Of a stretch of DNA of 64,000 nucleotides, positions 20,874 through 64,000 are shown piece by piece; positions within the stretch are counted from its first letter, which is position 1, and each line of letters starts with the position of its first letter. The position numbers and the translations under genes were made by a program. This stretch comes from Tubiluchus corallicola (lineage: Eukaryota; Animalia; Priapulida): contig JAQGDQ010000555.1 in the NCBI GenBank assembly GCA_030141605.1, forward strand, positions 62,001 through 126,000, given 5' to 3'. The notes under the pieces were generated by a model. The model ran no database searches. It was not told the DNA's origin and saw only the letters and a program-made list of their open reading frames with translations.

Positions 20874-21945
20874 CTATATGTAACCTGGGTGTGAGTCTCT
20901 TCTAGAAGGACATATCTCCTATTTGCTAGTGCTTTCCTTCTAGATAATTTTCAGAAGGCGTCGGTGCGACATGGTATGGTAAACGGACATTTTATTATTA
21001 TTATTATTTACTAATTTCTAACGAGTGGCTTCGCTTGTAAGTGCAACAGTTTGAAATTATTTTACAACGCACATATAACTTACATAACTTTCCCTTAATG
21101 TAAACAATCTAGATATAACGCTTACCCACGAAGCTGGAAATGAAAAGAATATATGATGTTAGATATCAAATCCATTTCCTGGTGGCAACAATGCGAGAAT
21201 TAATCCGCAATCTTATCAGTTATGGTTGCTTGCTTTCAGAAATACAGATCCGTACAATTCCTACTTTTTAATGTAAAGGCGGATACTTACTTCTATGCGA
21301 TGCTTTCACACAATATCAGAGCAGTGTTACGCACTTTAGTTAGTTCCATACTAGTTGGTGATTAAATCCATTTTTGGTACTTCAGGTAATAGCAAGACGG
21401 GAAATCATAAAAAGTATTACGAACGGAAAAATACAGAAAGCAATATGGCTTTCAAGACTGTTTCACGACTTCGAAGAGTGAAACTATGCGAACCTTATCG
21501 TATGTTGATGAAAATTATTATTATCATAACTTAAAGGAAACAGGCAATCATACAACATCGTACCAATTACCGCTGTATCACCTGTCAGCCAATTGTAAAT
21601 CATGTTTGAGAAGGAACCACAACCCAGTTTAACAGGTTGCAGAGTATTCATCTAGATTGACGGGAATTTGTGTCACACACTCTCTCTCTCCCTTTGTTTT
21701 TAATAAATGCAATATTATGCATGCTGTTTTTACAAAGATATTATTAATTTTTACTATGCAAATAAATCTAGTCTAATGTTAATGACTTTTGCCTGTGTTT
21801 TGGCTAACTGTAATAATTACAAAGGTTTTGTTTCAGTTATGTGTTATTTCAAACATTCTGCTTTGTTTGCTAAAATATTGAAGAATATAGCACATGCGTA
21901 TTATCATAATGATTTGTGAGCCTCCTATAATATTGTAACGGATCC

Positions 21946-43795: not shown

Positions 43796-43934
43796 TTTTA
43801 TTATTATTTATTTATTGACCATGGTCAAAGATATATACAAAAAGTCATAAGAATCGTTTCGAGATAGTTGCAACATTTAAGAAATTTGGGCTGATCATAG
43901 TCCATAGATCACTCAATGTATGGTGTAGTAACAA

Positions 43935-45434
43935 TTAGAGACCAAAAATGGCTAGAGCATCGTGTACAAAATTACAAATATCAGCGGGATTTCCGCTGAA
44001 GAAAGTCACTAAATCATCAAATATTAAATCGGAATTGTTTCTTAAGATACGTGTTTCAGGGCATTCACATATTACGTGCAGTTCTGTTTGGATTTGTCCA
44101 CATGAACAGAGTCTTCGCTCTCTTTCAATACGGGACCAACGACCAGTTTCTATGGCAAGGTTGTGTGAGGAAAGTCTGAGCCTTGACGTTTTTATCCGTT
44201 TCAGTTCATTAACATTGTCACAGTAAATTCGATGGATAGAGAGTTCAGGGTTTAGTTGTAAGTATGTGACAAATTTCGTACGGTCAGAAGCGCGGGTCCT
44301 ATCTTTGATTCTATTCAGGTCATCATCGATAAAATCACCACGGTATCCAGTTATATTACGCAAATATCGAGCACATGGGGTGTTTGACTCGCGACACAAA
44401 TTGTAAACAATCATAAACGGATCATCAGGAATATTCACTCTTGAGCGAACACTCTTATTGAAAAAGCGAGATTGGGTGTCCTTCACAAAACCATTCAGGG
44501 AGGGAAGGCCCAACTCTATGAGACACAAATCATTAGCAGTTGTACGTCGCACACCGAGTAAACATTTGATAACACTAATATACATCCCTTGAATAGGATT
44601 AAGGTCATTGAATAGCCAAGACTCACATCCGTAAGTAATTGCAGCAAGTAGCGCGGCATTTAAAACTAACTTCTTAACTGCGAAAGGATAAGCTGAATTC
44701 TTAGAAATAAATGACACGAACTTCAGTACGTGACAATATTTGTCTTCGCAGTGTTTTTCCAGAGCGGGTTTAAATTTTCCTGTTGAGCTAAAGACAGCAC
44801 CGAGGTAAACGTAATAGTCACAGTGATTAACAGTAAGGGGGTTCACTACGAGGTCCAGACGATCAACAGCATCGCCATTAATAACCATAAATTTAGTCTT
44901 TTTTAAGTTCACCTTCATACCGGATTGATCACAGAACTCAATAAGGATACTGAGTTTTTGAATAATACCTTCTCTAGATGTTGACAATAAGATTGTATCA
45001 TCCATCAACATCAAACAGTGTAAATTTCCTAGGAAACCATCGAGACCACATCGAGACTTTAATTCACGAATAAGAGGGTTAATATACAGTGTGAAGAGGA
45101 AACAGGATGACGGAGAACCCTGCTTCACACCTAATGTAACACCAATAACGGCAGCACCAAGGACCAGCTGCGTATTCACATACATGGCAGCAAGAGCAGA
45201 AAGCATCACAAGACGACAGCCAAGAGCTCTCAAGGCCCTAATCAAACCAGAACGTGGAACTCTATCGTAAGCTTTCGAGAAGTCTACGAAAACGATATAT
45301 AATTTCCTCTTTTTAAACAGTGCATAGTCCATTAATAGTCTTAGAGTCACAATCCACTCAATGCAGGATCTACCCTTTTGGGCGCCAGCCTGCTCCCTAT
45401 CGGGTTTGAACCACATCTCTAAACGAAAAAACAA
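43935..45434 (-). CDS. Non-LTR retrotransposon RT and C-terminal domain, 5'-truncated with no endonuclease, copy 1
   Basis: EQAG, FVDFSKAYDRV, GVKQG, LMDDT, YLG and C-terminal HNLAIETGRW..C.C..E.H...C motifs; the frame opens without an ATG. Confidence 0.93.
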   Translation of the reverse strand: MFFRLEMWFKPDREQAGAQKGRSCIEWIVTLRLLMDYALFKKRKLYIVFVDFSKAYDRVPRSGLIRALRALGCRLVMLSALAAMYVNTQLVLGAAVIGVTLGVKQGSPSSCFLFTLYINPLIRELKSRCGLDGFLGNLHCLMLMDDTILLSTSREGIIQKLSILIEFCDQSGMKVNLKKTKFMVINGDAVDRLDLVVNPLTVNHCDYYVYLGAVFSSTGKFKPALEKHCEDKYCHVLKFVSFISKNSAYPFAVKKLVLNAALLAAITYGCESWLFNDLNPIQGMYISVIKCLLGVRRTTANDLCLIELGLPSLNGFVKDTQSRFFNKSVRSRVNIPDDPFMIVYNLCRESNTPCARYLRNITGYRGDFIDDDLNRIKDRTRASDRTKFVTYLQLNPELSIHRIYCDNVNELKRIKTSRLRLSSHNLAIETGRWSRIERERRLCSCGQIQTELHVICECPETRILRNNSDLIFDDLVTFFSGNPADICNFVHDALAIFGL

Positions 45435-45454: not shown

Positions 45455-46966
45455 TTATAGTTCATCTTCTGATCTTTTGGCACATTCTTTCATTTCTATA
45501 CTTTCTCCTTGAACTGCGTTTTTGTTTTTAATCTTGAATCTGATCAACTTGTACCCAATCCAAATGAGCAAAGAATTCACCTCAATACACGTGATTACCG
45601 TCATTAGCCATAGCCAATCTTTCGCAGAAGAGTAATCTTCATACCAGGCTAATGGTTCCATTTCGTGGTGAGAAATAAGTAGTGCATGAGTTTTGTTAAT
45701 TAAAGCATTTATCTCGTCGGTATAAGTAGTTAGATTATGGCTCTCCAATTTAGGTATCCAACTTTTCACCCGGTGGAGAGAATCACTACATTTGAGAAAA
45801 TATCCAGGGAGATGATACTCATTAGCTTTCTTGCATGTTAGCACAAGACTAGTGTTCTTGGGAATAATCTTTTCTGATGCTCCTGTATATCTTGATACTG
45901 TTCTTAATGAATAACTAGCCTGTCTTTGAACTAGCCACCCACCCATTAATGTAACTACTCCCCAACTTTCTGGCGACCTTTCATATTTGATAGATTGGTC
46001 AAACGGTTGGGTTTCCAAATAAGTTGGGCATACAATTACATTAAGATCTTGGCAAGATCCAGGAGGAATAATTTTAATTTCATTTATTCCCAAAATCATG
46101 TTGAATGCGTTTCCGTGGACAACCCAAGTTCCTCCTTTGACGATTGGCACATTCTGTGTCTTTACATGTACTTTGCCAGGCACTTGGATGATTTCTCTGA
46201 CATTGATTAACATCCACAGTCTTCGTGGCTCAGATTTAATGACTATAGCCCGGCTAGCTCCATAGGATAGCGGGATGCTGTTCTTTTGGTCAGACATGAG
46301 AGAATGAAACTGGGTGGGACTGATCAGTAGGGGGTCTATTTTTGAAGAGGTGATAGATTGTAGGCCATGTCCATATCGGATAGAATTTAAATAGTCGTGA
46401 AGTTTCTTCATGTCGTTAGCGTGTGCCATCATCAGGTTATGTACATTAGCATCTAACTTGCCAACAATTCTCTCTAACTCTTCTAGATCGTGGCCTAGGA
46501 TACCTATTTCTTTATTAGCTATTTCCAGTTCATGTGCTATTATCCCTTGATTGTTTCTTAATTCCCCCATTTTCTTATTTAATGAATTTATTTCTGCCCT
46601 GTTTGTAGCGCCTAAGGCTAAAGCAGCAGTCGCCTCTGCCATAGCTGCGCTGGACATAATTAATCCGAGAAATCGTTTTTTCCTGTTATTATGGGTTGAA
46701 GAATTATCTTTTTCTCGAAACTGAAAGAGATCGTAATGAATATTCCAGGCCCGGGACATATCGACTCTAACAACTTTGAAAGATTGTGCCACTTGATACC
46801 CAATGGGTTTTGGTTCTGTAATTATAATGCCATAAGACGCCAAGGCATCTTGATGTTTGTAGATTATATCTTGCGATAATTGTGGAATAATACTATTTAC
46901 ACTTATTATGGTTCCATAAGTAACAGCTGAAAGAACAAGAAGGATTGAAAGAGTATAATGACCCAT
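45455..46966 (-). CDS. Class I viral fusion glycoprotein (paramyxo/pneumo F-like), 503 aa, endogenous viral element copy 1
   Basis: Signal peptide, furin site RKKR followed by hydrophobic FLGLIMSSAAMAEATAALALG, long heptad repeat, Cys-containing head, N-glycosylation sequons, C-terminal TM and short tail; intronless. Confidence 0.85.
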   Translation of the reverse strand: MGHYTLSILLVLSAVTYGTIISVNSIIPQLSQDIIYKHQDALASYGIIITEPKPIGYQVAQSFKVVRVDMSRAWNIHYDLFQFREKDNSSTHNNRKKRFLGLIMSSAAMAEATAALALGATNRAEINSLNKKMGELRNNQGIIAHELEIANKEIGILGHDLEELERIVGKLDANVHNLMMAHANDMKKLHDYLNSIRYGHGLQSITSSKIDPLLISPTQFHSLMSDQKNSIPLSYGASRAIVIKSEPRRLWMLINVREIIQVPGKVHVKTQNVPIVKGGTWVVHGNAFNMILGINEIKIIPPGSCQDLNVIVCPTYLETQPFDQSIKYERSPESWGVVTLMGGWLVQRQASYSLRTVSRYTGASEKIIPKNTSLVLTCKKANEYHLPGYFLKCSDSLHRVKSWIPKLESHNLTTYTDEINALINKTHALLISHHEMEPLAWYEDYSSAKDWLWLMTVITCIEVNSLLIWIGYKLIRFKIKNKNAVQGESIEMKECAKRSEDEL

Positions 46967-46971: not shown

Positions 46972-47495
46972 CTTCTACATTTTAGTTCTTCAAAACCACG
47001 AGGTTGTATGTCAGAATGGCTATCTTCTACATTTTAGTTCTTCTAAACCACGAGGTTGTATGTCAGAATGGCTACCTCCTATATTTTTGTTCTTCAAAAC
47101 CATGAGGTTGTATGTCAGAATGGCTACCTTCTACATTTTAGTTCTTCTAAACCACGAGGTTGTATGTCAGAATGGCTATCTTCTACATTTTAGTTCTTCT
47201 AAACCACGAGGTTGTATGTCAGAATGGCTATCTTCTACATTTTAGTTCTTCTAAACCACGAGGTTGTATGTCAGAATGGCTCTTCTACATTTTAGTTCTG
47301 CTAAACCACGAGGTTGTATGTCAGAATGGCTATCTTCTACATTTTAGTTCTTCAAAACCACGAGGTTGTATGTCAGAATGGCTATCTTCTACATTTTAGT
47401 TCTTCTAAACCACGAGGTTGTGTGTCAGAATGGCTGTCTTCTACATTTTAGTTCTGCTAAACCACGAGGTTGTGTGTCAGAATGGCTACCTTCTA
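46972..47495. repeat. 52-bp satellite spacer 1 (10 units)
   Basis: Same unit; 524 bp = 10x52 + 6-bp TSD - a 2-bp deletion. Confidence 0.95.
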
Positions 47496-47634
47496 TTTTA
47501 TTATTATTTATTTATTGACCATGGTCAAAGATATATACAAAAAGTCATAAGAATCGTTTCGAGATAGTTGCAACATTTAAGAAATTTGGGCTGATCATAG
47601 TCCATAGATCACTCAATGTATGGTGTAGTAACAA

Positions 47635-49134
47635 TTAGAGACCAAAAATGGCTAGAGCATCGTGTACAAAATTACAAATATCAGCGGGATTTCCGCTGAA
47701 GAAAGTCACTAAATCATCAAATATTAAATCGGAATTGTTTCTTAAGATACGTGTTTCAGGGCATTCACATATTACGTGCAGTTCTGTTTGGATTTGTCCA
47801 CATGAACAGAGTCTTCGCTCTCTTTCAATACGGGACCAACGACCGGTTTCTATGGCAAGGTTGTGTGAGGAAAGTCTGAGCCTTGACGTTTTTATCCGTT
47901 TCAGTTCATTAACATTGTCACAGTAAATTCGATGGATAGAGAGTTCAGGGTTTAGTTGTAAGTATGTGACAAATTTCGTACGGTCAGAAGCGCGGGTCCT
48001 ATCTTTGATTCTATTCAGGTCATCATCGATAAAATCACCACGGTATCCAGTTATATTACGCAAATATCGAGCACATGGGGTGTTTGACTCGCGACACAAA
48101 TTGTAAACAATCATAAACGGATCATCAGGAATATTCACTCTTGAGCGAACAATCTTATTGAAAAAGCGAGATTGGGTGTCCTTCACAAAACCATTCAGGG
48201 AGGAAAGGCCCAACTCTATGAGACACAAATCATTAGCAGTTGTACGTCGCACACCGAGTAAACATTTGATAACACTAATATACATCCCTTGAATAGGATT
48301 AAGGTCATTGAATAGCCAAGACTCACATCCGTAAGTAATTGCAGCAAGTAGCGCGGCATTTAAAACTAACTTCTTAACTGCGAAAGGATAAGCTGAATTC
48401 TTAGAAATAAATGACACGAACTTCAGTACGTGACAATATTTGTCTTCGCAGTGTTTTTCCAGAGCGGGTTTAAATTTTCCTGTTGAGCTAAAGACAGCAC
48501 CGAGGTAAACGTAATAGTCACAGTGATTAACAGTAAGGGGGTTCACTACGAGGTCCAGACGATCAACAGCATCGCCATTAATAACCATAAATTTAGTCTT
48601 TTTTAAGTTCACCTTCATACCGGATTGATCACAGAACTCAATAAGGATACTGAGTTTTTGAATAATACCTTCTCTAGATGTTGACAATAAGATTGTATCA
48701 TCCATCAACATCAAACAGTGTAAATTTCCTAGGAAACCATCGAGACCACATCTAGACTTTAATTCACGAATAAGAGGGTTAATATACAGTGTGAAGAGGA
48801 AACAGGATGACGGAGAACCCTGCTTCACACCTAATGTAACACCAATAACGGCAGCACCAAGGACCAGCTGCGTATTCACATACATGGCAGCAAGAGCAGA
48901 AAGCATCACAAGACGACAGCCAAGAGCTCTCAAGGCCCTAATCAAACCAGAACGTGGAACTCTATCGTAAGCTTTCGAGAAGTCTACGAAAACGATATAT
49001 AATTTCCTCTTTTTAAACAGTGCATAGTCCATTAATAGTCTTAGAGTCACAATCCACTCAATGCAGGATCTACCCTTTTGGGCGCCAGCCTGCTCCCTAT
49101 CGGGTTTGAACCACATCTCTAAACGAAAAAACAA
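47635..49134 (-). CDS. 5'-truncated LINE RT, copy 2 (insert 47496-50671)
   Basis: Differs from copy 1 by two amino acids; offset exactly 3700 bp. Confidence 0.93.
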   Translation of the reverse strand: MFFRLEMWFKPDREQAGAQKGRSCIEWIVTLRLLMDYALFKKRKLYIVFVDFSKAYDRVPRSGLIRALRALGCRLVMLSALAAMYVNTQLVLGAAVIGVTLGVKQGSPSSCFLFTLYINPLIRELKSRCGLDGFLGNLHCLMLMDDTILLSTSREGIIQKLSILIEFCDQSGMKVNLKKTKFMVINGDAVDRLDLVVNPLTVNHCDYYVYLGAVFSSTGKFKPALEKHCEDKYCHVLKFVSFISKNSAYPFAVKKLVLNAALLAAITYGCESWLFNDLNPIQGMYISVIKCLLGVRRTTANDLCLIELGLSSLNGFVKDTQSRFFNKIVRSRVNIPDDPFMIVYNLCRESNTPCARYLRNITGYRGDFIDDDLNRIKDRTRASDRTKFVTYLQLNPELSIHRIYCDNVNELKRIKTSRLRLSSHNLAIETGRWSRIERERRLCSCGQIQTELHVICECPETRILRNNSDLIFDDLVTFFSGNPADICNFVHDALAIFGL

Positions 49135-49154: not shown

Positions 49155-50666
49155 TTATAGTTCATCTTCTGATCTTTTGGCACATTCTTTCATTTCTATA
49201 CTTTCTCCTTGAACTGCGTTTTTGTTTTTAATCTTGAATCTGATCAACTTGTACCCAATCCAAATGAGCAAAGAATTCACCTCAATACACGTGATTACCG
49301 TCATTAGCCATAGCCAATCTTTCGCAGAAGAGTAATCTTCATACCAGGCTAATGGTTCCATTTCGTGGTGAGAAATAAGTAGTGCATGAGTTTTGTTAAT
49401 TAAAGCATTTATCTCGTCGGTATAAGTAGTTAGATTATGGCTCTCCAATTTAGGTATCCAACTTTTCACCCGGTGGAGAGAATCACTACATTTGAGAAAA
49501 TATCCAGGGAGATGATACTCATTAGCTTTCTTGCATGTTAGCACAAGACTAGTGTTCTTGGGAATAATCTTTTCTGATGCTCCTGTATATCTTGATACTG
49601 TTCTTAATGAATAACTAGCCTGTCTTTGAACTAGCCACCCACCCATTAATGTAACTACTCCCCAACTTTCTGGCGACCTTTCATATTTGATAGATTGGTC
49701 AAACGGTTGGGTTTCCAAATAAGTTGGGCATACAATTACATTAAGATCTTGGCAAGATCCAGGAGGAATAATTTTAATTTCATTTATTCCCAAAATCATG
49801 TTGAATGCGTTTCCGTGGACAACCCAAGTTCCTCCTTTGACGATTGGCACATTCTGTGTCTTTACATGTACTTTGCCAGGCACTTGGATGATTTCTCTGA
49901 CATTGATTAACATCCACAGTCTTCGTGGCTCAGATTTAATGACTATAGCCCGGCTAGCTCCATAGGATAGCGGGATGCTGTTCTTTTGGTCAGACATGAG
50001 AGAATGAAACTGGGTGGGACTGATCAGTAGGGGGTCTATTTTTGAAGAGGTGATAGATTGTAGGCCATGTCCATATCGGATAGAATTTAAATAGTCGTGA
50101 AGTTTCTTCATGTCGTTAGCGTGTGCCATCATCAGGTTATGTACATTAGCATCTAACTTGCCAACAATTCTCTCTAACTCTTCTAGATCGTGGCCTAGGA
50201 TACCTATTTCTTTATTAGCTATTTCCAGTTCATGTGCTATTATCCCTTGATTGTTTCTTAATTCCCCCATTTTCTTATTTAATGAATTTATTTCTGCCCT
50301 GTTTGTAGCGCCTAAGGCTAAAGCAGCAGTCGCCTCTGCCATAGCTGCGCTGGACATAATTAATCCGAGAAATCGTTTTTTCCTGTTATTATGGGTTGAA
50401 GAATTATCTTTTTCTCGAAACTGAAAGAGATCGTAATGAATATTCCAGGCCCGGGACATATCGACTCTAACAACTTTGAAAGATTGTGCCACTTGATACC
50501 CAATGGGTTTTGGTTCTGTAATTATAATGCCATAAGACGCCAAGGCATCTTGATGTTTGTAGATTATATCTTGCGATAATTGTGGAATAATACTATTTAC
50601 ACTTATTATGGTTCCATAAGTAACAGCTGAAAGAACAAGAAGGATTGAAAGAGTATAATGACCCAT
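49155..50666 (-). CDS. Viral F-like fusion glycoprotein, copy 2
   Basis: Protein identical to copy 1. Confidence 0.85.
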   Translation of the reverse strand: MGHYTLSILLVLSAVTYGTIISVNSIIPQLSQDIIYKHQDALASYGIIITEPKPIGYQVAQSFKVVRVDMSRAWNIHYDLFQFREKDNSSTHNNRKKRFLGLIMSSAAMAEATAALALGATNRAEINSLNKKMGELRNNQGIIAHELEIANKEIGILGHDLEELERIVGKLDANVHNLMMAHANDMKKLHDYLNSIRYGHGLQSITSSKIDPLLISPTQFHSLMSDQKNSIPLSYGASRAIVIKSEPRRLWMLINVREIIQVPGKVHVKTQNVPIVKGGTWVVHGNAFNMILGINEIKIIPPGSCQDLNVIVCPTYLETQPFDQSIKYERSPESWGVVTLMGGWLVQRQASYSLRTVSRYTGASEKIIPKNTSLVLTCKKANEYHLPGYFLKCSDSLHRVKSWIPKLESHNLTTYTDEINALINKTHALLISHHEMEPLAWYEDYSSAKDWLWLMTVITCIEVNSLLIWIGYKLIRFKIKNKNAVQGESIEMKECAKRSEDEL

Positions 50667-50671: not shown

Positions 50672-51195
50672 CTTCTACATTTTAGTTCTTCAAAACCACG
50701 AGGTTGTATGTCAGAATGGCTATCTTCTACATTTTAGTTCTTCTAAACCACGAGGTTGTATGTCAGAATGGCTACCTCCTATATTTTTGTTCTTCAAAAC
50801 CATGAGGTTGTATGTCAGAATGGCTACCTTCTACATTTTAGTTCTTCTAAACCACGAGGTTGTATGTCAGAATGGCTATCTTCTACATTTTAGTTCTTCT
50901 AAACCACGAGGTTGTATGTCAGAATGGCTATCTTCTACATTTTAGTTCTTCTAAACCACGAGGTTGTATGTCAGAATGGCTCTTCTACATTTTAGTTCTG
51001 CTAAACCACGAGGTTGTATGTCAGAATGGCTATCTTCTACATTTTAGTTCTTCAAAACCACGAGGTTGTATGTCAGAATGGCTATCTTCTACATTTTAGT
51101 TCTTCTAAACCACGAGGTTGTGTGTCAGAATGGCTGTCTTCTACATTTTAGTTCTGCTAAACCACGAGGTTGTGTGTCAGAATGGCTACCTTCTA
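50672..51195. repeat. 52-bp satellite spacer 2 (10 units)
   Basis: Same variant order as spacer 1. Confidence 0.95.
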
Positions 51196-51334
51196 TTTTA
51201 TTATTATTTATTTATTGACCATGGTCAAAGATATATACAAAAAGTCATAAGAATCGTTTCGAGATAGCTGCAACATTTAAGAAATTTGGGCTGATCATAG
51301 TCCATAGATCACTCAATGTATGGTGTAGTAACAA

Positions 51335-52834
51335 TTAGAGACCAAAAATGGCTAGAGCATCGTGTACAAAATTACAAATATCAGCGGGATTTCCGCTGAA
51401 GAAAGTCACTAAATCATCAAATATTAAATCGGAATTGTTTCTTAAGATACGTGTTTCAGGGCATTCACATATTACGTGCAGTTCTGTTTGGATTTGTCCA
51501 CATGAACAGAGTCTTCGCTCTCTTTCAATACGGGACCAACGACCGGTTTCTATGGCAAGGTTGTGTGAGGAAAGTCTGAGCCTTGACGTTTTTATCCGTT
51601 TCAGTTCATTAACATTGTCACAGTAAATTCGATGGATAGAGAGTTCAGGGTTTAGTTGTAAGTATGTGACAAATTTCGTACGGTCAGAAGCGCGGGTCCT
51701 ATCTTTGATTCTATTCAGGTCATCATCGATAAAATCACCACGGTATCCAGTTATATTACGCAAATATCGAGCACATGGGGTGTTTGACTCGCGACACAAA
51801 TTGTAAACAATCATAAACGGATCATCAGGAATATTCACTCTTGAGCGAACAATCTTATTGAAAAAGCGAGATTGGGTGTCCTTCACAAAACCATTCAGGG
51901 AGGGAAGGCCCAACTCTATGAGACACAAATCATTAGCAGTTGTACGTCGCACACCGAGTAAACATTTGATAACACTAATATACATCCCTTGAATAGGATT
52001 AAGGTCATTGAATAGCCAAGACTCACATCCGTAAGTAATTGCAGCAAGTAGCGCGGCATTTAAAACTAACTTCTTAACTGCGAAAGGATAAGCTGAATTC
52101 TTAGAAATAAATGACACGAACTTCAGTACGTGACAATATTTGTCTTCGCAGTGTTTTTCCAGAGCGGGTTTAAATTTTCCTGTTGAGCTAAAGACAGCAC
52201 CGAGGTAAACGTAATAGTCACAGTGATTAACAGTAAGGGGGTTCACTACGAGGTCCAGACGATCAACAGCATCGCCATTAATAACCATAAATTTAGTCTT
52301 TTTTAAGTTCACCTTCATACCGGATTGATCACAGAACTCAATAAGGATACTGAGTTTTTGAATAATACCTTCTCTAGATGTTGACAATAAGATTGTATCA
52401 TCCATCAACATCAAACAGTGTAAATTTCCTAGGAAACCATCGAGACCACATCTAGACTTTAATTCACGAATAAGAGGGTTAATATACAGTGTGAAGAGGA
52501 AACAGGATGACGGAGAACCCTGCTTCACACCTAATGTAACACCAATAACGGCAGCACCAAGGACCAGCTGCGTATTCACATACATGGCAGCAAGAGCAGA
52601 AAGCATCACAAGACGACAGCCAAGAGCTCTCAAGGCCCTAATCAAACCAGAACGTGGAACTCTATCGTAAGCTTTCGAGAAGTCTACGAAAACGATATAT
52701 AATTTCCTCTTTTTAAACAGTGCATAGTCCATTAATAGTCTTAGAGTCACAATCCACTCAATGCAGGATCTACCCTTTTGGGCGCCAGCCTGCTCCCTAT
52801 CGGGTTTGAACCACATCTCTAAACGAAAAAACAA
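51335..52834 (-). CDS. 5'-truncated LINE RT, copy 3 (insert 51196-54371)
   Basis: Near-identical to copies 1 and 2. Confidence 0.93.
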   Translation of the reverse strand: MFFRLEMWFKPDREQAGAQKGRSCIEWIVTLRLLMDYALFKKRKLYIVFVDFSKAYDRVPRSGLIRALRALGCRLVMLSALAAMYVNTQLVLGAAVIGVTLGVKQGSPSSCFLFTLYINPLIRELKSRCGLDGFLGNLHCLMLMDDTILLSTSREGIIQKLSILIEFCDQSGMKVNLKKTKFMVINGDAVDRLDLVVNPLTVNHCDYYVYLGAVFSSTGKFKPALEKHCEDKYCHVLKFVSFISKNSAYPFAVKKLVLNAALLAAITYGCESWLFNDLNPIQGMYISVIKCLLGVRRTTANDLCLIELGLPSLNGFVKDTQSRFFNKIVRSRVNIPDDPFMIVYNLCRESNTPCARYLRNITGYRGDFIDDDLNRIKDRTRASDRTKFVTYLQLNPELSIHRIYCDNVNELKRIKTSRLRLSSHNLAIETGRWSRIERERRLCSCGQIQTELHVICECPETRILRNNSDLIFDDLVTFFSGNPADICNFVHDALAIFGL

Positions 52835-52854
52835 GTTATAGTGTTTTGATATAA

Positions 52855-54366
52855 TTATAGTTCATCTTCTGATCTTTTGGCACATTCTTTCATTTCTATA
52901 CTTTCTCCTTGAACTGCGTTTTTGTTTTTAATCTTGAATCTGATCAACTTGTACCCAATCCAAATGAGCAAAGAATTCACCTCAATACACGTGATTACCG
53001 TCATTAGCCATAGCCAATCTTTCGCAGAAGAGTAATCTTCATACCAGGCTAATGGTTCCATTTCGTGGTGAGAAATAAGTAGTGCATGAGTTTTGTTAAT
53101 TAAAGCATTTATCTCGTCGGTATAAGTAGTTAGATTATGGCTCTCCAATTTAGGTATCCAACTTTTCACCCGGTGGAGAGAATCACTACATTTGAGAAAA
53201 TATCCAGGGAGATGATACTCATTAGCTTTCTTGCATGTTAGCACAAGACTAGTGTTCTTGGGAATAATCTTTTCTGATGCTCCTGTATATCTTGATACTG
53301 TTCTTAATGAATAACTAGCCTGTCTTTGAACTAGCCACCCACCCATTAATGTAACTACTCCCCAACTTTCTGGCGACCTTTCATATTTGATAGATTGGTC
53401 AAACGGTTGGGTTTCCAAATAAGTTGGGCATACAATTACATTAAGATCTTGGCAAGATCCAGGAGGAATAATTTTAATTTCATTTATTCCCAAAATCATG
53501 TTGAATGCGTTTCCGTGGACAACCCAAGTTCCTCCTTTGACGATTGGCACATTCTGTGTCTTTACATGTACTTTGCCAGGCACTTGGATGATTTCTCTGA
53601 CATTGATTAACATCCACAGTCTTCGTGGCTCAGATTTAATGACTATAGCCCGGCTAGCTCCATAGGATAGCGGGATGCTGTTCTTTTGGTCAGACATGAG
53701 AGAATGAAACTGGGTGGGACTGATCAGTAGGGGGTCTATTTTTGAAGAGGTGATAGATTGTAGGCCATGTCCATATCGGATAGAATTTAAATAGTCGTGA
53801 AGTTTCTTCATGTCGTTAGCGTGTGCCATCATCAGGTTATGTACATTAGCATCTAACTTGCCAACAATTCTCTCTAACTCTTCTAGATCGTGGCCTAGGA
53901 TACCTATTTCTTTATTAGCTATTTCCAGTTCATGTGCTATTATCCCTTGATTGTTTCTTAAGTCCCCCATTTTCTTATTTAATGAATTTATTTCTGCCCT
54001 GTTTGTAGCGCCTAAGGCTAAAGCAGCAGTCGCCTCTGCCATAGCTGCGCTGGACATAATTAATCCGAGAAATCGTTTTTTCCTGTTATTATGGGTTGAA
54101 GAATTATCTTTTTCTCGAAACTGAATGAGATCGTAATGAATATTCCAGGCCCGGGACATATCGACTCTAACAACTTTGAAAGATTGTGCCACTTGATACC
54201 CAATGGGTTTTGGTTCTGTAATTATAATGCCATAAGACGCCAAGGCATCTTGATGTTTGTAGATTATATCTTGCGATAATTGTGGAATAATACTATTTAC
54301 ACTTATTATGGTTCCATAAGTAACAGCTGAAAGAACAAGAAGGATTGAAAGAGTATAATGACCCAT
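52855..54366 (-). CDS. Viral F-like fusion glycoprotein, copy 3
   Basis: Two substitutions relative to copies 1 and 2 (YDLF>YDLI, MGEL>MGDL). Confidence 0.85.
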   Translation of the reverse strand: MGHYTLSILLVLSAVTYGTIISVNSIIPQLSQDIIYKHQDALASYGIIITEPKPIGYQVAQSFKVVRVDMSRAWNIHYDLIQFREKDNSSTHNNRKKRFLGLIMSSAAMAEATAALALGATNRAEINSLNKKMGDLRNNQGIIAHELEIANKEIGILGHDLEELERIVGKLDANVHNLMMAHANDMKKLHDYLNSIRYGHGLQSITSSKIDPLLISPTQFHSLMSDQKNSIPLSYGASRAIVIKSEPRRLWMLINVREIIQVPGKVHVKTQNVPIVKGGTWVVHGNAFNMILGINEIKIIPPGSCQDLNVIVCPTYLETQPFDQSIKYERSPESWGVVTLMGGWLVQRQASYSLRTVSRYTGASEKIIPKNTSLVLTCKKANEYHLPGYFLKCSDSLHRVKSWIPKLESHNLTTYTDEINALINKTHALLISHHEMEPLAWYEDYSSAKDWLWLMTVITCIEVNSLLIWIGYKLIRFKIKNKNAVQGESIEMKECAKRSEDEL

Positions 54367-54371: not shown

Positions 54372-54739
54372 CTTCTACATTTTAGTTCTTCAAAACCACG
54401 AGGTTGTATGTCAGAATGGCTATCTTCTACATTTTAGTTCTTCTAAACCACGAGGTTGTATGTCAGAATGGCTACCTCCTATATTTTTGTTCTTCAAAAC
54501 CATGAGGTTGTATGTCAGAATGGCTACCTTCTACATTTTAGTTCTTCTAAACCACGAGGTTGTATGTCAGAATGGCTATCTTCTACATTTTAGTTCTTCT
54601 AAACCACGAGGTTGTATGTCAGAATGGCTATCTTCTACATTTTAGTTCTTCTAAACCACGAGGTTGTATGTCAGAATGGCTCTTCTACATTTTAGTTCTG
54701 CTAAACCACGAGGTTGTATGTCAGAATGGCTACCTTCTA
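54372..54739. repeat. 52-bp satellite spacer 3 (7 units), ending at CCTTCTA
   Basis: 368 bp = 7x52 + 6 - 2. Confidence 0.95.
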
Positions 54740-54745
54740 TGCAAT

Positions 54746-55813
54746 TTATGCAATTTTGAAATTGGTCGTGGTTGTTTGGAATTCATCATCACTGTCTTCG
54801 ATATACTTGTTTCCTACTGTGTGTCTGGTTACTTGATCCCTTTGAAAGTTTGCTCTTTCTATGGAGAGGTTTTCCATTGCCTGTCTTACATCTTCAGAGC
54901 CCTCATTTCTCGCCGCTGTAGCGGCTTCTCTTCTGATGATTTTTCCTAGCTGTTTCGCGAATTCGTCGATTGTTGGGGAAACATCAGGCTTTTTATATTG
55001 CCAAACACTGTATCGAGGGTCGTTTGTGTTATCCTTATCGGAAATGATGTGCAATAATACTGTTGTGAGTACTCTGTTATTGTTAGTACTTATGTTGGTG
55101 AATGCATTTTGGTTAAAGTTTTTGGCGTACAAATAGGATTTGTCGGGTCTCCCAACACAAGTTTGCCAGAACCTTTGGAGCCGGAGCAACTCTTTTATAG
55201 TCCATGAGCACCCTATTTTCTTTAACAACTCATTTCTGTCCAGTTTTGTAGACTCTGTGGCTTGTGCTAACAATTGGGGAAGTGTAAGTGAGGCCCACGT
55301 TAGGTGTCTCATTACAGCAAAGTTTACATACCGATAGAGTTCTTCTCCCCGACCAGTTATCCTTCCGCTCCTTACACAAAGCCCAAACGTCATAAGCGCT
55401 GTTGCGCAGACCTCCGGACGTGAAAACACTGTATAGTAAGCATTCCATAGTGACTCGTTGACTTTGAGTCCTAGTGGCCTATAATTCCACATCATTGAAT
55501 TCTCAGTTTCTTCACTCAGTACTTTGTTTCTTACTTGTTTCGATTTGCCTGCCGCTCGAGTGAGAACCATTACAAGAAAACATATTGAGTCTAATTCCCA
55601 TTCGTAGATGTCGGTAGCTGCCGTTTCAAAATAACTGTCGACTTTTTCCCACACCTCAATGATGTCGTTGGTCATGACATCTGGTGATCGTTGAGGAAGT
55701 TTAGATAGTTCATGGAGTAATTTGCCTGTGTCACCATCTGATCCGGAGGTTCCAGGCTCTAGATCTTCTCCCTTTGATCCAGCATTCAATTTGGCATAGC
55801 TGCCCAAAGTCAT
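54746..55813 (-). CDS. Putative mononegavirus (rhabdo-like) nucleoprotein, about 355 aa, endogenous viral element
   Basis: Intronless, helical-looking protein from ATG 55813 (MTLGSY). SYLYAKNFNQNAFTNISTNNNRVLTTVL resembles the YAR..D..F..L....N motif of plant/invertebrate rhabdovirus-type N proteins; acidic tail EDSDDEF. Confidence 0.65.
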   Translation of the reverse strand: MTLGSYAKLNAGSKGEDLEPGTSGSDGDTGKLLHELSKLPQRSPDVMTNDIIEVWEKVDSYFETAATDIYEWELDSICFLVMVLTRAAGKSKQVRNKVLSEETENSMMWNYRPLGLKVNESLWNAYYTVFSRPEVCATALMTFGLCVRSGRITGRGEELYRYVNFAVMRHLTWASLTLPQLLAQATESTKLDRNELLKKIGCSWTIKELLRLQRFWQTCVGRPDKSYLYAKNFNQNAFTNISTNNNRVLTTVLLHIISDKDNTNDPRYSVWQYKKPDVSPTIDEFAKQLGKIIRREAATAARNEGSEDVRQAMENLSIERANFQRDQVTRHTVGNKYIEDSDDEFQTTTTNFKIA

Positions 55814-56070
55814 AGTTTTGTGTTGGAGCGGAAAGTCTTGCGAGAACTCATCACACAAATTATTACCAGGTGTTACACATTTTGGATCACGTACAGTATT
55901 ACCAGATGTTACACATTTTTTGCAAAAGACAAATTTACAATTATATGTAATAGTAAAACATATGTAACGAGCTACAAATTGGATTAGTACTATACAAGGA
56001 GAATGCATTACAGGATAAGATACATATTCACAATTATACGATAATAAAAATATATAAGGTAAGATTAGGT

Positions 56071-57257
56071 AGACATCAAACATTCGAGTTCGCCATTCTA
56101 CTGGTGTTTGCTAAAAGAAATTATTGAGTTTACTAAGAGGTTACTTTTTTATCTCACTAGTACACATTAGGGGTAAACATCAAACATTCCAGTTCGCCAT
56201 TCTACTGGTCTTTGCTAAAAGAAATTATTGAGTTTACTAAGGGGTTACTTTTTTATCTCATTAGTACACACTAGGGGTAAACATCAAACATTCGAGTTCG
56301 CCATTCTACTGGTGTTTGCTAAAAGAAATTATTGAATTATTAATGATTAGTTTTTATCAGCCGTGCTTTTGCTTAAGTCTCAACCTGGTGGAGTGACTCA
56401 AATCAAGCACAGTGTTCATGTTTACTGTCTAAAATATCGAAAATGAATTGAAAAACATGATTATTTTTCATATACACTTTTATACATAATTGTCAGATAT
56501 ATTTAAAATAAAATGGGGAAATGATGTTCAAAAACTTGCGCAACAGCTTGTTTTAAAATGCTGAAATTAATAAATAAAAACAATTTTTAATGACTGTTAG
56601 CTATGAGCTTATAGACTTTTGCGTCTAATTGTTTTAATCGCTCAATTAGCTTATCTATTAGATAAGCAGTTAACTCATTGTTGTGTATCAAATAAGAAAT
56701 CAAATCTTCGATAAACTGCACTTGTTCTTCCGTTAGTTAAATTTTCCGTGTAACTGCACACACATTAAAGATATTAAAATTTAGCTTACTTCGTTCGTAG
56801 AACGTTTTTCTCCTCCATTTTGTGGTTTAACATTGTACTTGAATTTTGGAGGAGAATATGCAGGTGGCGGTACTATATTAATTCGCCGTGGTATCATTAT
56901 ACGTTTCTTTCCTCTCTCTAAATAAAAAAATCGCACTTTTCTTTACTTGTGTCGCATGAAAACTAATTGAATGTCGCGTAGGGTGACGTCATAGAACCCT
57001 CGGCTGTTGCTCAGGACCAATCAGAGTTCGTAGCGTCACTCCCAACTTTTGCGTTATTATGCTTCCGGTTGCTATAGTAACCATTGTAGGTAAATTTGCC
57101 CTCCTGGTAAATCCTGTGAAATAAGACGAACAAAAAATCAAGTTTATTTTTGGTTACTTTGATTGAGTTTTAACGAACTTAATGCTGTGGAAATATAGTT
57201 CAAAAGCTGAATCTGACAGTGATAGTTTTTATTAAAATTCGATAAGCTTTCACACTA
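56071..57257. repeat. Locally duplicated block, copy A (contains an internal ~104-bp triplet at 56071-56335)
   Basis: Aligns by eye to 59040-60098, including TGACGTCA and CCAATCA motifs. Confidence 0.85.
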
Positions 57258-57929
57258 TTAATATATAACCTTTGCACATTAATTCAACCGCTAACAGATT
57301 TTTTCCCACCTCTCATGGTATTTTTCAGCCATTAAATGGGACGTATACGTCACCAAATCCCACAAACAGTATTTCTAACATGAACTAGCCTAATTTATAC
57401 ATTGTAAATATTGTTACTGATATGATGTGATCGGAGCAGTAGATCTGACGGAAACAGTGAGAGATGCGAAAGACGTTCCCCGATGCACCATGTCAAAAGT
57501 TGTCAAGAATTTATCGAAAAAACTGTCGTGGACAGACCTTAGGATTCTTAGGATTTAATCCCAATTGAAAACTCATTAAATTCAAGCTACAAGCTGGATG
57601 AGTTCCATATTCAAATTATATGAATTTCCTTAACAAAATCAGGGAGGAGCGAGTTTATCATCTTAATCTGATTCATCTGATAAACTCAATTAATATCTAC
57701 TGAAATTCATATTCCGAAATTTATTCATAACATAATGCACATGGGGAACAAACAAGTATTTAGGCCAGCACATTGCAAACTGGTATATTTGCTAAGCTTC
57801 AGCAATATGAGTCTAACATGCTTAACACTAAAATACAAATTGTACTTTAATTCTAATGCAAAACAGATTATTAACTGTGAACACTTGCAAAACGATAGTT
57901 AGTTAATTATGGCTAGTAAGCATACTTAC

Positions 57930-58055
57930 TCGTTCAACAACCTGGTTACAGCTGTAAAACGTTCTCCCACCATACACAGGGGGTAGGAGGGCCTCCCTCG
58001 GTCTTTTCCTCATTGGGAAGTTTGGCAAAAGCCCAGTAGACCTGCGATTGTCATA
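57930..58055 (-). CDS. Putative phase-0 exon (42 codons) of an unknown gene, duplicate A
   Basis: TTTTGCAG acceptor and GTAAGT donor; YDNRRSTGLLPNFPMRKRPREALLPPVYGGRTFYSCNQVVER. Confidence 0.55.
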
Positions 58056-58239
58056 CTGCAAAATAGGGTGAACATTGAGTTTGAATGCTATCCGGTGTCC
58101 GGAAGCAAGTACATATATGAGTCTAACATGCTTAACACTAAAATACAAATTGTACTTTAATTCTAATGCAAAACGGATTATTAACTGCGAACATTTGCAA
58201 AACGATAGTTAGTTAATTATGGCTAGTAAGCATACTTAC

Positions 58240-58368
58240 TTTGTCGAATGCCTTTTTCGATGGATAAAACGGTCTGCCACCGTATAGTGGTGGCAGAACC
58301 GCTTCTTTAGGTCTTGGTAATGGCGGAAAGTTGGGTACTGGGCCCGTACGCCCGCGGCAATTGTCACA
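58240..58368 (-). CDS. Putative phase-0 exon (43 codons) of an unknown gene, duplicate B
   Basis: Same splice contexts; CDNCRGRTGPVPNFPPLPRPKEAVLPPLYGGRPFYPSKKAFDK. Confidence 0.55.
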
Positions 58369-59039
58369 CTGCAAAATAGGGTGAACATTGAGTTAGAATC
58401 CTATCAGGTGTGAAATATAATAAATATGTTTGGCAGAAATAAAGGCATCTGTAATTTCCTTCAGTGAGAAATGCGGATTGGTTTTAAGATCCGTATTTGT
58501 AGAGGGTTGTATATACACTGCAGGTGTCTCTATGCGTAATTCTCAACATCATTTTCAAGATTTGTAGAGAAAACACTTTATCAGCTGCTTCGCTTTTAAC
58601 CTAAATAATGACGTAGTTATGCGACCTTACGTCATAGAAACCTGCCAGGCACAGAGGACCAATAAGAACCCTGACAGCTCGCATTAGCAAAAATTATTTA
58701 TATATTTAATTATGTATTTACTTATATTTTTTTATTTATTCAGTCAACAAGGAGTATTTAAATTTTACAAGGTGCGATACAAAAGTATAGTGTCGTGACA
58801 TTAAATAGGGGAGACCCGGGTAAAGTGGACATTTACGGGTTTTCGCTCATAAAGTTCAAGACGTTTGATCTGTAACAATCAATTACATGCCCTATTCTTC
58901 CGTAGGAAACTCTGCTATATTCATGTGGTAAAAACTTATAATTACTATTACTCGTTTAACCGATAATTCCGAAATACGAAACCAAAATTTCTAGCGCAAA
59001 GTGGATCTTTTACGACCATTATGGATCATACGTATGGGC

Positions 59040-60098
59040 ATTAGTACACGTTAGGAGTAAACATCAGACATTCGAGTTCGCCATTCTACTGGTGTTTGCT
59101 AAAAGAAATTATTGAATTATTAATGATTAGTATTTATCAGCCGTGCTTTTGCTTAAGTCTGTACCTGGTGAAGTGACTCAAATCAAGCACAGTGTTCATG
59201 TTTACGGTCTAAAACATCGAAAATGAATTGAAAAACATAATTATTTTTCATATACACTTTTATACATAATTGTCAGATATATTTAAAATAAAATGGGGAA
59301 ATGATGTTCAAAAAGTTGCGCAACAGTTTGTTTTAAAATGCTGAAATTAATAAGTAAAAACAATTTTTAATGACTGTTATAGACTTTTGCGTCTAACTGT
59401 TTTAATTGCTCCATTAGCTTATCTATTAGATAAGCAGTTAACTCATTGTTTTTTATCTAGATTTCTGCTGGATTTCTACTGTGTTTACCTATCTTGAGGG
59501 CAGGCTGCTTTCTATAGTATGTCTACAATAGACGTAATAGCCATATGATGGCGATAATTTTTCTCATTACTAACCTAACACTGCATGAGCTGAAATTTTC
59601 CATGTAACTGCACACACGTTAAAGATATTAAAATTTAGCTTAGTTCGTTCGTAGAATGTTTTGCTCCTGCATTTTGTGGTTTAACGTTGTACTTGAATTT
59701 TGGAGAAGAATATGCAGGTGGCGGTACTATATTAATTCGCCATGGTATCTTTTTATATCTCTCTAAAAAACGTAGTTTTCGTTTTGCTTGTATCGCATGA
59801 AAAGTAATTGAATGTCGTGTAGGGTGACGTCATAGAGCCCTCGGCTCTTGCTCAGGACCAATCAGAATTCGTAGCGTCACTCCCAACTTTTGCGTTATTA
59901 TGCTTCCGGTTGCTATAGTAACCATTGTAGGTAAAATTGCCCTCCTGGTAAATCCTGTGAAATAAGACGAACAGAAAATCAAGTTTATTTTTGGTTACTT
60001 TGATTGAGTTTTAACGAACTTAATCCTGTGGAAATATAGTTTGAAAGCTGAATCTGACAGAGATAGTTTTTATTAGAATTCGATAAATTTTCACACTA
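59040..60098. repeat. Locally duplicated block, copy B
   Basis: Direct repeat of about 56260-57257 with an internal substituted segment near 59455-59590. Confidence 0.85.
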
Positions 60099-60283
60099 GG
60101 CTATGCTAAATGACTAACAAAATTCCTTTAAGATATAGGTGTTTAAAACATGAATCTAACATACCATTTGGCTTTGTCCTTTTCTCCTTTGCTCCACTTT
60201 TAAATAGTTTTAAATAGTTCTTTTTGATTTGTTGTATTTTGTCAATTTTTTGTGTTTTTTTCTTTTTTTTCTTCCTCCGTCCA

Positions 60284-60901
60284 CTAGTCGCTCTCCACAT
60301 CAATTAAATGTGGCAGTACCTCGAAAGAAGTAAGCCACATTTCTTCCGCCCCGTCATACCAGCTCCGCTTGGCTTCCCGTAATATGGAGGCCAGTTCGAA
60401 AATATTAAAAATTTCACAGGGGTCCATAGCCACACAATATTGTTCTCTATTTATTAAACGCACCCTCCCTGGAGCGAAATGGTTTAATAACCTTGCCATG
60501 ACTGGCATCCCATAGATCCTACTCACTTGGAAGAGTACTATTTCCTCCTGTAAAATGAATATAAATCCTTATTAATATTTCTTTAGGCAAACCTCTTTTT
60601 TTTCTGTAAATTTATTAACGTGATTTTAGCTCCAAAGCTCCAAAATCATCAATACAGTGATTTTATTGATACTGGTATTATAATTGTGATTATTACTAAA
60701 ATTATTACTTACGCCATTAACAACCGATTTCCCATACAAATGCCGGAAGGTCCCCGGAAAATTTATGCCTAGTTGCCTAATCCGGCGTGATATCTGTTGT
60801 AGAAGGTACTCTGCTTCACATAACACGTCATAAATGCTGTCGTCGTTAGGACTGGGCAACACACCCAATAGATATGCATTCGTAGAAATCTGTGCTGCCA
60901 T
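60284..60901 (-). CDS. Two-exon hypothetical protein, 150 aa (exons 60901-60713 and 60547-60284)
   Basis: ATG at 60901, donor GGC|GTAAGT, acceptor TTTTACAG|GAG; the phase-0 join keeps the frame open to TAG; TATA-like CATAAAAG about 115 bp upstream. Confidence 0.6.
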
Positions 60902-61202
60902 TGTATGCTAGGTTTTAAGAAACAAATTGATGGATAAACCGCTAACAACAATCTACAAACTTCACCAAGCACGGGCTAAATCCAAAAGAGGCTACTTAAA
61001 AGCCTAGGAGTCTCTTTTATGCTTAAGAGGCCTGGGAACTTTCGTATACTGTGTATAGAATTTGACTCCGTTTCGGTCCCAATGCTCATTACTACGCAAT
61101 AAAAGTCCTAATAGTCAAAACCCTTTTTCCCACCTCTCATGGTATTTTTCAGCCATTAAATGGGATGTATACATCACAAAATCCCATAAACAGTATTTCT
61201 AG

Positions 61203-62200
61203 ACATAAGGTCCAGACATCAATTTAACTCCATTAGTCTTCTTTGTTTTCTTTGATGTTTCACTCTGAAAGTCTGTTGTCTACATTCACTTCGCTTGACT
61301 GGAATTCAGGCAGATTGAGTTTCAGTTCCATAAACCAAATCGTGGGCTAGGTCATCTTGTGTATTGCACACAACGGGTTCAGAATCTATTACTCTCACAA
61401 GCTTCTTACAATGTTCAGCTGTGTTGCCGACTCCCACTTAAATATCACTAAGCTCACCAAAAAAATCAAGTTTAGGGCCCTGACCTTCGATCCACTGGGC
61501 CACCTGATCTACATTCTGTCCATATACTACTATACGCTTTGCAGGTTTAAATGACAACTTTCCATAAATCCGAGCTTCAATTGCCTCATCACTCTTGTAC
61601 CTTTCGTCAACATCTAAAAGACCATATCTGTTTGTACCCAGATCAATCTTACAATCAGTTTTCTCATGGTTAGCCAGATTTGGTTTTCCTAAACCGACCT
61701 TATACCAAGTCTGCTCCTCAAGTTGTTTGCTTAACACTCTAACTACACCTCTAAGCCTGTTTATTAAAGCATTAATCTTGTTTCGTTGCACCTTTTCAAT
61801 CTTTTCAATTAACCTCTTCGCTGATCCAAGTAACTTGTTCATAATTAGCTCTTTGGCACTTTTCCTCTTCTAATTTTTCTACAAAGCGACATCTTCGGGC
61901 ACAGGCTTTCTTGATTTTCTTGACTCTCGCTTCGTACATTTGCATTTGTTCTTCTGCATGCATAGCTTGCCTGGATCTCACTTTCTTTTGAGCAATGATC
62001 CGGTTGAGCATTTTACTGCTCTTATTTACTAATTTTACGCTAAAGTTTTGCTCATCTTTAGCGTGAAAATTGGTCAAGGTTTGCAGTCTTCCGTGTTCCT
62101 CATCTAACCAATTTTAATATCCTATCCCAACAATCTCCTGTCTGACCGGGATAGAATCGAACGTGCGCTGAAATTCTTCTAGTTCATCTTTTTTCAAAGG
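61203..62200 (-). pseudogene. Disrupted intronless ORF, basic and coiled-coil-rich, origin unknown
   Basis: Overlapping ORFs 61805-62077 and 61438-61842 can be joined by one frameshift; coding-like sequence continues past in-frame stops on both sides. Confidence 0.45.
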
Positions 62201-63704
62201 AATTTATCCCTGACTCTATCAAAGGAATTTGAAAAAGCGAAAACTCGACTTTTAACCGTTTCTACATCACAAGTCACGCAACATTGTGAATCTCAAGTAT
62301 TGATACTCTGCAAAACGGGCACTTACACTCCAAGTTTGCAAGCTTGTTTTTAGTGCAAGTTTGCAAGCATTGTTCAAAAAGTGCGTTGATTACAAAAAAC
62401 AACGAGGCTAAAATTTGTATGGACAAATCAAGGAAGAATCTTTATGAGAGCTAATGAAAAAATGGAATCCTTCGAAATAAAATGTGAAGAGGACTTAACC
62501 TAATTTGAACTGTTTCAGATTCTGATTATACTTATGCTCGTCTTTAACGCTAATCAAGTAAACAGGTATCTTTCTTATTTTAAGTTTCTTTGCCGTTTGT
62601 CAGATTGCCCGTTCGCCTAATACAGTTCACGTGTGTACTAATTGTGTGTGCATGCCTGCGGGTGTATGTATTATTCATAATTGTATGTATTATTCAAGTT
62701 TATATTGTATAAGTGAGCAAAAAATAGCTCACATTTTTTTGTATGATAACTAGAAACAGTTATCGGTACAGTCGTAATGCCTATGCAGGTTGGTACTGTA
62801 AGTGATTACAAAACTAAGGATACCACCGAGTAATAATTACAAACAGCTTAGTGTGGTTGAATGAAACCAGTTTTTTTTTGTCCGTATGTTAATTGATAAC
62901 CTTGACTACATGGGTAAATGGTCCAATGAATAAGCGATTCGTAAATGGTTGCGGACGAGATTTTGTCACGTATCAAGTATTTAATATATTAACCTGTTTA
63001 CAGAAACCGATTAACAGATTACCTTGAAGTGAAAACTTTAACGTACCTGGGCATAACCTATGACATTCACAGGTACGCTGCCTTGATTGCGAAATTGTAT
63101 TTTTTTACCAATGAATACACGAAGGGATTTTTTTGAACAAGCACTGTTAGACACTAAATGAAACGTGAGCGTGTAATATTTTTAATACAGAAGTGACTCC
63201 ATTTTTTATATGGCGAGACAGCTTAACGTAAATTTATGCTTAAATTCATGCTTAACTCCATATTAAATTTACCCCTTTTTAGAAAGATATGCATAAAAAA
63301 TAGTAACTTTGTTTCAATTTTCACTTATTAGCAACATGGATATATAATTAAACTGTATTAATCCTACGTACCGTGATTAGTTAATATCTGGCAAGTTATT
63401 TTCTGTCTATATATCATTAACAGTCAAATTTAAGTGGAACCATATTTCTAAATATGAGACTATTTTTGTGTACTTTAATGTATAATCAAAGAATTCATAC
63501 TACATCAGTAATCCAAAATACATGTGCAAATTATATGCTCCAGGATATATTAATTTGATAATTTGAAGCAATTATTTTATTTATCTTTTTTTAAATCAAA
63601 GTGGAAGATAGAGGCAAATAAGTCGGCCCTAATTACTACCTCAGTTTTTTTGTATTTTCTTTCTTTTTTAACAATTACTCACCCTCTTTAACTACATCAT
63701 TCAT

Positions 63705-64000
63705 ATGTTAACATTCTCATGTCCCGCTTGCGAGAAACCTGTTAAACATAACCAAAAGGCTCTAGGATGTGACAACTGTTATAGGTGGATTCACCTAAGA
63801 TGCTCACCGTTATCAGTTGACGATTATAATGACCTGGCTACAGATGATAATGAATGGTTTTGCCATCTTTGTCTACAGTCTATTTTTCCATTCAATAATA
63901 TACCAGATGATGAAGAATTTAAACATATTGCACGTTTTTCAAATATTGGTTCTATCTTGTGCGATTATAACTTAAATCTCTTTTGCGCTGAATCAGATGA
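63705..64000 (+). mobile_element. PHD-finger N-terminus of a CR1/L2-group LINE ORF, running off the window end
   Basis: MLTFSCPACEKPVKHNQKALGCDNCYRWIHLRC...WFCHLCLQSIFPFNNI: a C4HC3 PHD followed by the FPF motif seen in such LINEs. Confidence 0.75.

Follow-up and report, generated by a model that had tools for sequence, protein, structure and literature searches.

How does a probable viral gene come to be joined directly to a host satellite, with neither a poly(A) tail nor a piece of LINE between them? In most non-retroviral viral fossils, age has erased the traces of how they were made, and the textbook route, by LINE-1 with a poly(A) tail and a target-site duplication (TSD), comes from mammals. 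The question is raised by a 64,000-nt stretch of the priapulid Tubiluchus corallicola (GCA_030141605.1, contig JAQGDQ010000555.1, positions 62,001 to 126,000, forward strand; hereafter the window). The window is animal-type DNA of ~35% GC with many minisatellites, LINEs and a C2H2 zinc-finger exon. From 42731 on the + strand, a 52-bp minisatellite is followed by three near-identical 3.7-kb units, each made of a LINE 3' part, a fusion-protein-like (F-like) ORF and satellite, and then by a nucleoprotein-like (N-like) ORF; the LINE, F-like and N-like ORFs of this array all lie on the - strand. An exon-like stretch bounded by AG and GTAAG is found at 42381-42621 (-); if it is a real exon, the whole array would be intronic and would read in the same sense as its host gene, to which the zinc-finger exon at 14374-15447 may belong. 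Other, unrelated LINE-family fragments lie at 19595-20752 (RT, PF00078), 24711-25100 and 1078-1404.

The N-like ORF (54746-55813, -; 355 codons, Met at 55813) is intact and, like the F-like ORF, intronless and A-rich (35% A). The first-pass annotation had called it nucleoprotein-like and suggested a profile search, which bore this out: PF03216, the rhabdovirus nucleoprotein, scored 27.6 bits against a curated cut-off of 25 (E 2.6e-6) and was the sole match among the 24,736 families of Pfam, with residues 158-256 aligned to profile positions 189-293. This is a single HMM match over 99 residues, just above threshold, which makes the assignment weaker. A cellular or transposon homolog, which that annotation had named as evidence to the contrary, was looked for and none was found: 0 of 2056 candidates was a relative, NCBIfam and PHROGs returned 0 matches each, and among 1.84e9 representatives the 2 matches at E<=0.001 were bacterial PKD-repeat proteins aligned over short repeated stretches only, which were judged chance and rejected as relatives. 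The best PDB sequence match (E 0.13) was unrelated, pattern matches were confirmed in 0 of 2 cases in viral contigs and in 0 of 74 in metagenome contigs, and the ESM Atlas gave a best score of 0.75 and no lead. The AlphaFold single-sequence model is all-helical, but its pLDDT of 34.8 is too low for fold comparison, and its Foldseek list (0 matches at E<=0.001) carries no meaning at such a pLDDT. A viral nucleoprotein origin is highly probable in our judgement, and by its sequence the ORF is likely the nucleoprotein gene of a previously undescribed mononegavirus.

On the + strand, the satellite ends in CCTTCTA at 54739 and the insert begins directly after it. The sequence TATGCAATT is an exact 9-nt tandem duplication with copies at 54738-54746 and 54747-54755. 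Satellite and tandem have the first TA in common, and the stop codon of the N-like ORF (54746-54748) straddles both copies. The earlier description of a 9-nt duplication overlapping the stop codon, with TA microhomology to the target, is thus exact. The chance rate of such a tandem is 4.8e-6 per position (3000 shuffles of the N-like ORF); none of the three ORFs (N, F and LINE) holds a perfect 9-nt tandem, 19 kb of host DNA (2000-8200 and 9100-21900) likewise has none, and 57300-64000 has 4. As had also been claimed, neither poly(A/T) nor a LINE tail was found at the junction, and the LINE and 54740-55923 have a single 11-mer in common. The satellite does not return to the right of the insert (0 satellite 10-mers in 55814-64000) and no TSD beyond the 2-nt TA was found, again in agreement with the first reading.

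The target end at this junction, CTTCTA, is the very monomer base at which the LINE tails join the satellite (43795/47495/51195), a coincidence of repeat phase expected by chance in 1 case in 52, or in 1 in 5 if any TA would serve. The monomer at the N junction is another variant than the LINE junction monomer, so the N junction is a separate, second target and not a copy of the first LINE junction; the earlier proposal of priming on the satellite without a LINE segment is supported by this. An apparent second N junction at 51196 was rejected, because a variant of the satellite ties there with the N contig (2 records with a median length of 131).

Words of the N-like ORF are present in 4 of the 6 sequencing runs listed, from 2 studies, and none of the runs that contain them is an RNA run; runs X5 and X6 gave no match even to the satellite and the host repeat, and so are uninformative on the N insert. 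A single contig of run X1 (possibly the source) spans 54710-56032, through satellite, ORF and host repeat, with 0 differences. In run X3, from another sample and study, a contig covering 54703-55174 crosses the satellite/N junction, and the 9-nt tandem is present in contigs of both X1 and X3. Over 774 nt, three X3 contigs on the N-like ORF differ at 2 positions, of which one is synonymous and the other is not, and three long X3 contigs on the F-like gene show 3 differences in ~1300 nt. The same junction in a second sample indicates that the N insert is inherited and not an assembly artefact, and the presence of both this junction and the F-like gene in X3 indicates that both inserts are germline and young. 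Joined to host DNA and inherited, the N-like ORF has what defines a germline non-retroviral endogenous viral element. A small rise in X1 contig depth at 55012-55103, inside the N ORF, is possibly a short piece of another N-like copy.

On its 5' side, the N-like ORF is preceded by a leader, as previously noted, but one of 47 nt (55814-55860, -) and not ~40 nt. The novirhabdovirus gene-start signal is GCAC-N4-GTG(C/T) (PMC2820013), and the first 8 nt of the leader (55860-55853) equal positions 5-12 of its VHSV/HIRRV M/G form (Table 4 of that paper). This 8-mer sits exactly at the edge of unique sequence, beside a flanking direct repeat, and occurs 13 times in 128,000 window positions; the match was noticed post hoc and does not include the signal's first four letters (GCAC). 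It hints at a novirhabdovirus-like gene-start remnant at the N 5' end. The novirhabdovirus gene-end signal, AGA(T/C)AG-A7, has 0 matches in the window, where the N 3' UTR is not retained, so that truncation could explain its absence.

Beyond the leader lie a 23-nt direct repeat pair (55861-55883 / 55897-55919; 1 mismatch, 36-nt spacing), which may be host DNA or junction filler, and a dispersed host repeat (55924-56065) whose other copies join different left neighbours at 55924 and 56006-56008. Upstream of Met 55813 the N frame has no stop for 99 codons, as far as 56110 (naive chance ~0.001). It crosses the direct repeat, enters host repeat DNA and includes an in-frame ATG at 56083, so the window does not fix where the N insert ends on the right. 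The 445-aa ORF that begins at this ATG was rejected as a viral start, its first 53 codons falling in host repeat DNA. The X1 contig is unbranched through 55861-55923 and no satellite joint to that flank appears; a contig from a paralogous copy meets it at 55924 and carries different sequence to the left of this point. No empty allele of the insert was found in the run contigs, where those of X3 skip 55764-56005. At the right end, a satellite arm may have been lost or replaced, or the insertion may have occurred at the natural end of the array with a 2-nt TA duplication. Further right, local duplications of 91-93% identity pair 56739-57257 with 59593-60098 and 56259-56689 with 59039-59457. They hold, ~1.1 kb upstream of the N start, CCAAT, CRE-like and ETS-like motifs that we take to be promoter-like. 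A possible short exon with a GT donor lies at 56795-56897 (-), the donor being lost in the second duplicate copy. A bacterial promoter scan stayed at chance level, with a bacterial model applied to an animal host.

The neighbouring F-like ORF (52855-54366, -; copies at 45455-46966 and 49155-50666) is an intact, 503-codon, class I fusion-protein-like frame with a signal peptide, an RKKR furin site, a hydrophobic peptide, a heptad region and a C-terminal TM. It matches PF00523 at E 0.004 and 15.9 bits, under the cut-off of 29.8. Relatives were found among 0 of 7995 candidates, the best PDB match had E 1.4, 0 of 20 matches in viral contigs were confirmed, and the model (pLDDT 32.3; Foldseek 0 at E<=0.001) is too low in confidence for use. 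From this architecture and the sub-threshold PF00523 match, it is likely a viral class I fusion-protein gene. Diverged F-like sequences of ~89-91% identity (52856-52896, 53213-53311 and 53863-54078), one with a 406-nt skip, occur in X1-X4 contigs of both samples; they represent several F-derived copies at other genomic sites, of independent or older origin. The X1 contig depth, ~865-977 for F and 205 for N, fits several F copies, but depths are not copy numbers. One diverged X3 contig ceases to match at the TA of the F stop codon, a weak hint that viral copies end at the stop-codon TA as a rule.

Between the F stop and the LINE (52823-52854, -), the + strand opens with ACG and six A, a run found only at the 3 LINE/F joints within the window; the ACG is common to the LINE, whose last three letters double as the end of the run. 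The run resembles the RSV trailer terminus as printed in PMC7737744. Through this 3-nt microhomology, the RT may have switched templates to a viral plus-strand RNA at its 3' end, and F would then be the last gene before the terminus. Bipartite rhabdoviruses are segmented mononegaviruses with such a last-gene placement. In a chu-like fragment from a tunicate, N and a metapneumo-like glycoprotein are encoded separately from the RdRp (10.1101/2024.12.15.628590). Novirhabdovirus termini are given as GUAUA-type, not ACG-type (PMC2820013), and because the termini differ, N and F may come from two viruses.

With both genes described, the N-like ORF can be weighed as a non-viral one, that is, as an orphan host or mobile-element gene matched to the HMM by chance, up to which the satellite expanded. 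The thin HMM margin, the lack of a sequence relative among the 1.84e9 representatives and the frame running open into upstream host DNA speak for this, as does the description of F-type env genes in Ty3/gypsy elements too (PMC13524379), on account of which the F-like neighbour need not be viral. It is nevertheless very unlikely in our view, since the E-value was obtained over the whole of Pfam with a score above the curated cut-off, no gag/pol/LTR context is present, the leader carries a gene-start-like remnant, and the neighbours of the F-like ORF are a LINE and a virus-like terminus, not pol.

If the N-like gene is viral, as is likely, the LINE beside it is the probable source of the enzyme. 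Its 3' part in the third unit (51196-52825, -; identical-junction copies at 43796-45425 and 47496-49125) comprises RT (PF00078), the C-terminus and a TAA/TAAA tail, with 489 related sequences among 7999 scored candidates (best 70%). Contigs reveal a multi-copy family; each piece departs from the copy in the window at 0-6 letters, which marks the family as young and active-looking. In these contigs, the true LINE upstream sequence departs from the window at 52825; the F-like gene is thus joined, in the same orientation, to a 5'-truncated LINE. Site-specific targeting of the satellite by this LINE was rejected, as 4 of 4 distinct 3' flanks among the matches listed are non-satellite DNA; TA precedes the LINE tail in 3 of these 4, and in 2 of the 3 the TA may be tail.

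The satellite itself records how the array grew. The left arm (42731-43795, +) holds 20.5 monomers of the 52-bp repeat, and the right arm of the third LINE-F insertion (54372-54739, +), the target of the N insertion, holds 7.1, among them monomer variants not present in the left arm. Both internal arms (46972-47495 and 50672-51195) are recombinant, made of the right arm's first 361 nt (one letter differs) and the left arm's last 162 nt, and this composite structure indicates that unequal exchange produced the three units out of a single insertion. Where the F 5' end meets the satellite again, CTTCTA is duplicated, a 6-bp TSD (modulo 52). The LINE-F unit is probably an event separate from the N insertion, a template switch from LINE RNA to viral RNA that was later triplicated within the satellite. 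At 54690-54735, the 52-bp repeat has a summed contig depth of ~34,000 against 205 for N, the window holding ~48 monomers; further arrays elsewhere or collapsed assembly may account for the excess. The satellite 24-mer had 0 matches in metagenome contigs. Third-unit-specific letters at 51268, 53962 and 54126 do not appear in contigs of X1, X2 or X4, where the form found in units 1 and 2 stands instead; these letters may be dropped variants or assembly errors.

The two insertions could instead be one coupled event, in which the RT copied the LINE, switched to F RNA, then to satellite (7 monomers) and then to N RNA with no new nick. This would account for two viral genes 370 bp apart in the same orientation and for only one unresolved right end, and LINE chimeras made by template switch are known (10.1101/2025.02.02.635956). 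Three switches are needed, however, the right-arm variants absent from the left arm were not copied from the adjacent left-arm DNA, and at the F 5' end the satellite resumes in register and shows the 6-bp duplication, as after a completed insertion. A single event is accordingly decidedly unlikely.

For a separate N insertion, the reading we lean towards, with moderate confidence, is that the RT of the neighbouring LINE family acted in trans, priming on the satellite TA at the viral stop codon and slipping back once. At the monomer base shared with the LINE tails, the LINE endonuclease would have nicked the satellite, and the TA at the target 3' end would have annealed to UA within the viral stop codon to prime internally. 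After 7 nt of extension, the nascent strand would have re-annealed 9 nt back, which would leave the 9-nt duplication and no tail. Copying would then have continued to near the viral gene start, and the 5' end would have been joined without the satellite arm being restored. To the observed junction anatomy, this reading adds an enzyme, a slippage step and a template as inferred elements. Slippage is a plausible origin of the 9-mer; alternatively, the duplication was already in the viral RNA, and no second N copy or viral sequence that could show its origin was found. The youth of the LINE family and its capture of the F-like gene support the same RT as the machinery that inserted N.

There are precedents for the steps in other systems. 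Tailless retropseudogenes are described as arising by internal priming through 2-18 nt of complementarity (PMC5322556), and slippage is described on the TAA/TGTAA tails of tandem-tailed LINEs (PMC3747384). Several points count against trans-priming all the same. No TSD is present at the N insert, unlike at tailless retropseudogenes and the LINE-F unit; a 2-nt TA microhomology is weak by itself; non-L1 LINEs reportedly recognise their own 3' end stringently, and in PMC5322556 tailless copies arose with L1 systems only; and trans-priming does not explain the 99 open codons upstream of N. Since the LINE is not satellite-specific, two insertions 370 bp apart also need a local cause, and none was found.

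A different history would have N first inserted with a tail or as a LINE chimera, with a later deletion or satellite recombination removing the 3' UTR and tail and leaving the 9-mer as a repair scar. The region is a patchwork of local duplications, the satellite does recombine, the internal-arm exchange point falling, provided that N was in place by then, at most ~37 nt from its junction, and the missing right arm means that some loss or replacement may have occurred. Such a deletion must, however, have hit both the LINE-junction monomer base (1 in 52) and the stop codon; nothing of a tail or LINE remains, and the second sample shows the same junction. We regard tail loss as unlikely.

LINE-made viral fossils are already known as a type, and the tailless, minisatellite-joined form is an unusual variant of it. 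As described in PMC2912400 and PMC10288550, the LINE-1-made endogenous bornavirus-like and filovirus-like nucleoprotein elements (EBLN, EELN) resemble the N insert in being a single mononegaviral gene in mRNA sense in a LINE-type insertion, and perhaps in starting near a gene-start. These canonical copies keep gene-end, poly(A) and TSD, whereas the N insert has none of the three, its junction lies at the stop codon, its LINE is likely a non-L1, tandem-tailed one, and its target is a minisatellite. Tailless retropseudogenes (PMC5322556) share with the N insert the missing tail and a target end complementary to an internal RNA position, the 2-nt TA being the minimum of their range. They are described for host RNAs, L1 and TSDs, whereas here the RNA is likely viral, the junction has no TSD and an extra 9-nt duplication, and the neighbouring LINE is TAA/TAAA-tailed. 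The LINE-F unit is built like the U6/LINE-1-type chimeras of 10.1101/2025.02.02.635956, with 5' foreign RNA and 3' LINE in the same orientation and one TSD, and differs in that the foreign RNA is a likely viral F-like gene; the words 'viral' and 'virus' have 0 occurrences in that preprint. With novirhabdovirus N, the N-like ORF shares PF03216, its size (355 against 391 aa in IHNV) and perhaps the gene-start-like remnant, and novirhabdo-like viruses are known from tunicates (10.1101/2024.12.15.628590), so invertebrate relatives exist. It differs in having no gene-end, an F-like class I neighbour in place of G, and an F-joint terminus that is ACG-type and not GUAUA-type. Of the genus's gene order, N-P-M-G-NV-L, neither L nor any gene besides the N-like one is present in the window; membership of the source in the genus Novirhabdovirus is not claimed. 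In the literature covered, with subscription journals largely outside it, no tailless viral fossil made by a non-L1 LINE, no minisatellite LINE/viral-F chimera and no endogenous novirhabdo-like N was found.

A bolder reading joins all of this, and we offer it as possible though doubtful. One undescribed invertebrate mononegavirus, with a novirhabdovirus-like N, a paramyxo/pneumo-like class I F as last gene and a segmented or rearranged genome, would have been captured twice in a germline minisatellite by a non-L1 LINE that routinely primes at stop-codon UA, then multiplied and preserved without damage, possibly for an antiviral role. Short of that, the locus offers two intact viral-type genes next to a young LINE, their probable maker, with junctions at base level, and it suggests a tail-independent route by which a non-L1 LINE makes viral fossils. 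N and F, without detectable relatives in the collections searched, point to an undescribed mononegavirus lineage. A novirhabdo-like N and a class I F may occur together in this lineage, a point that touches on the origin of the paramyxo/pneumovirus fusion proteins.
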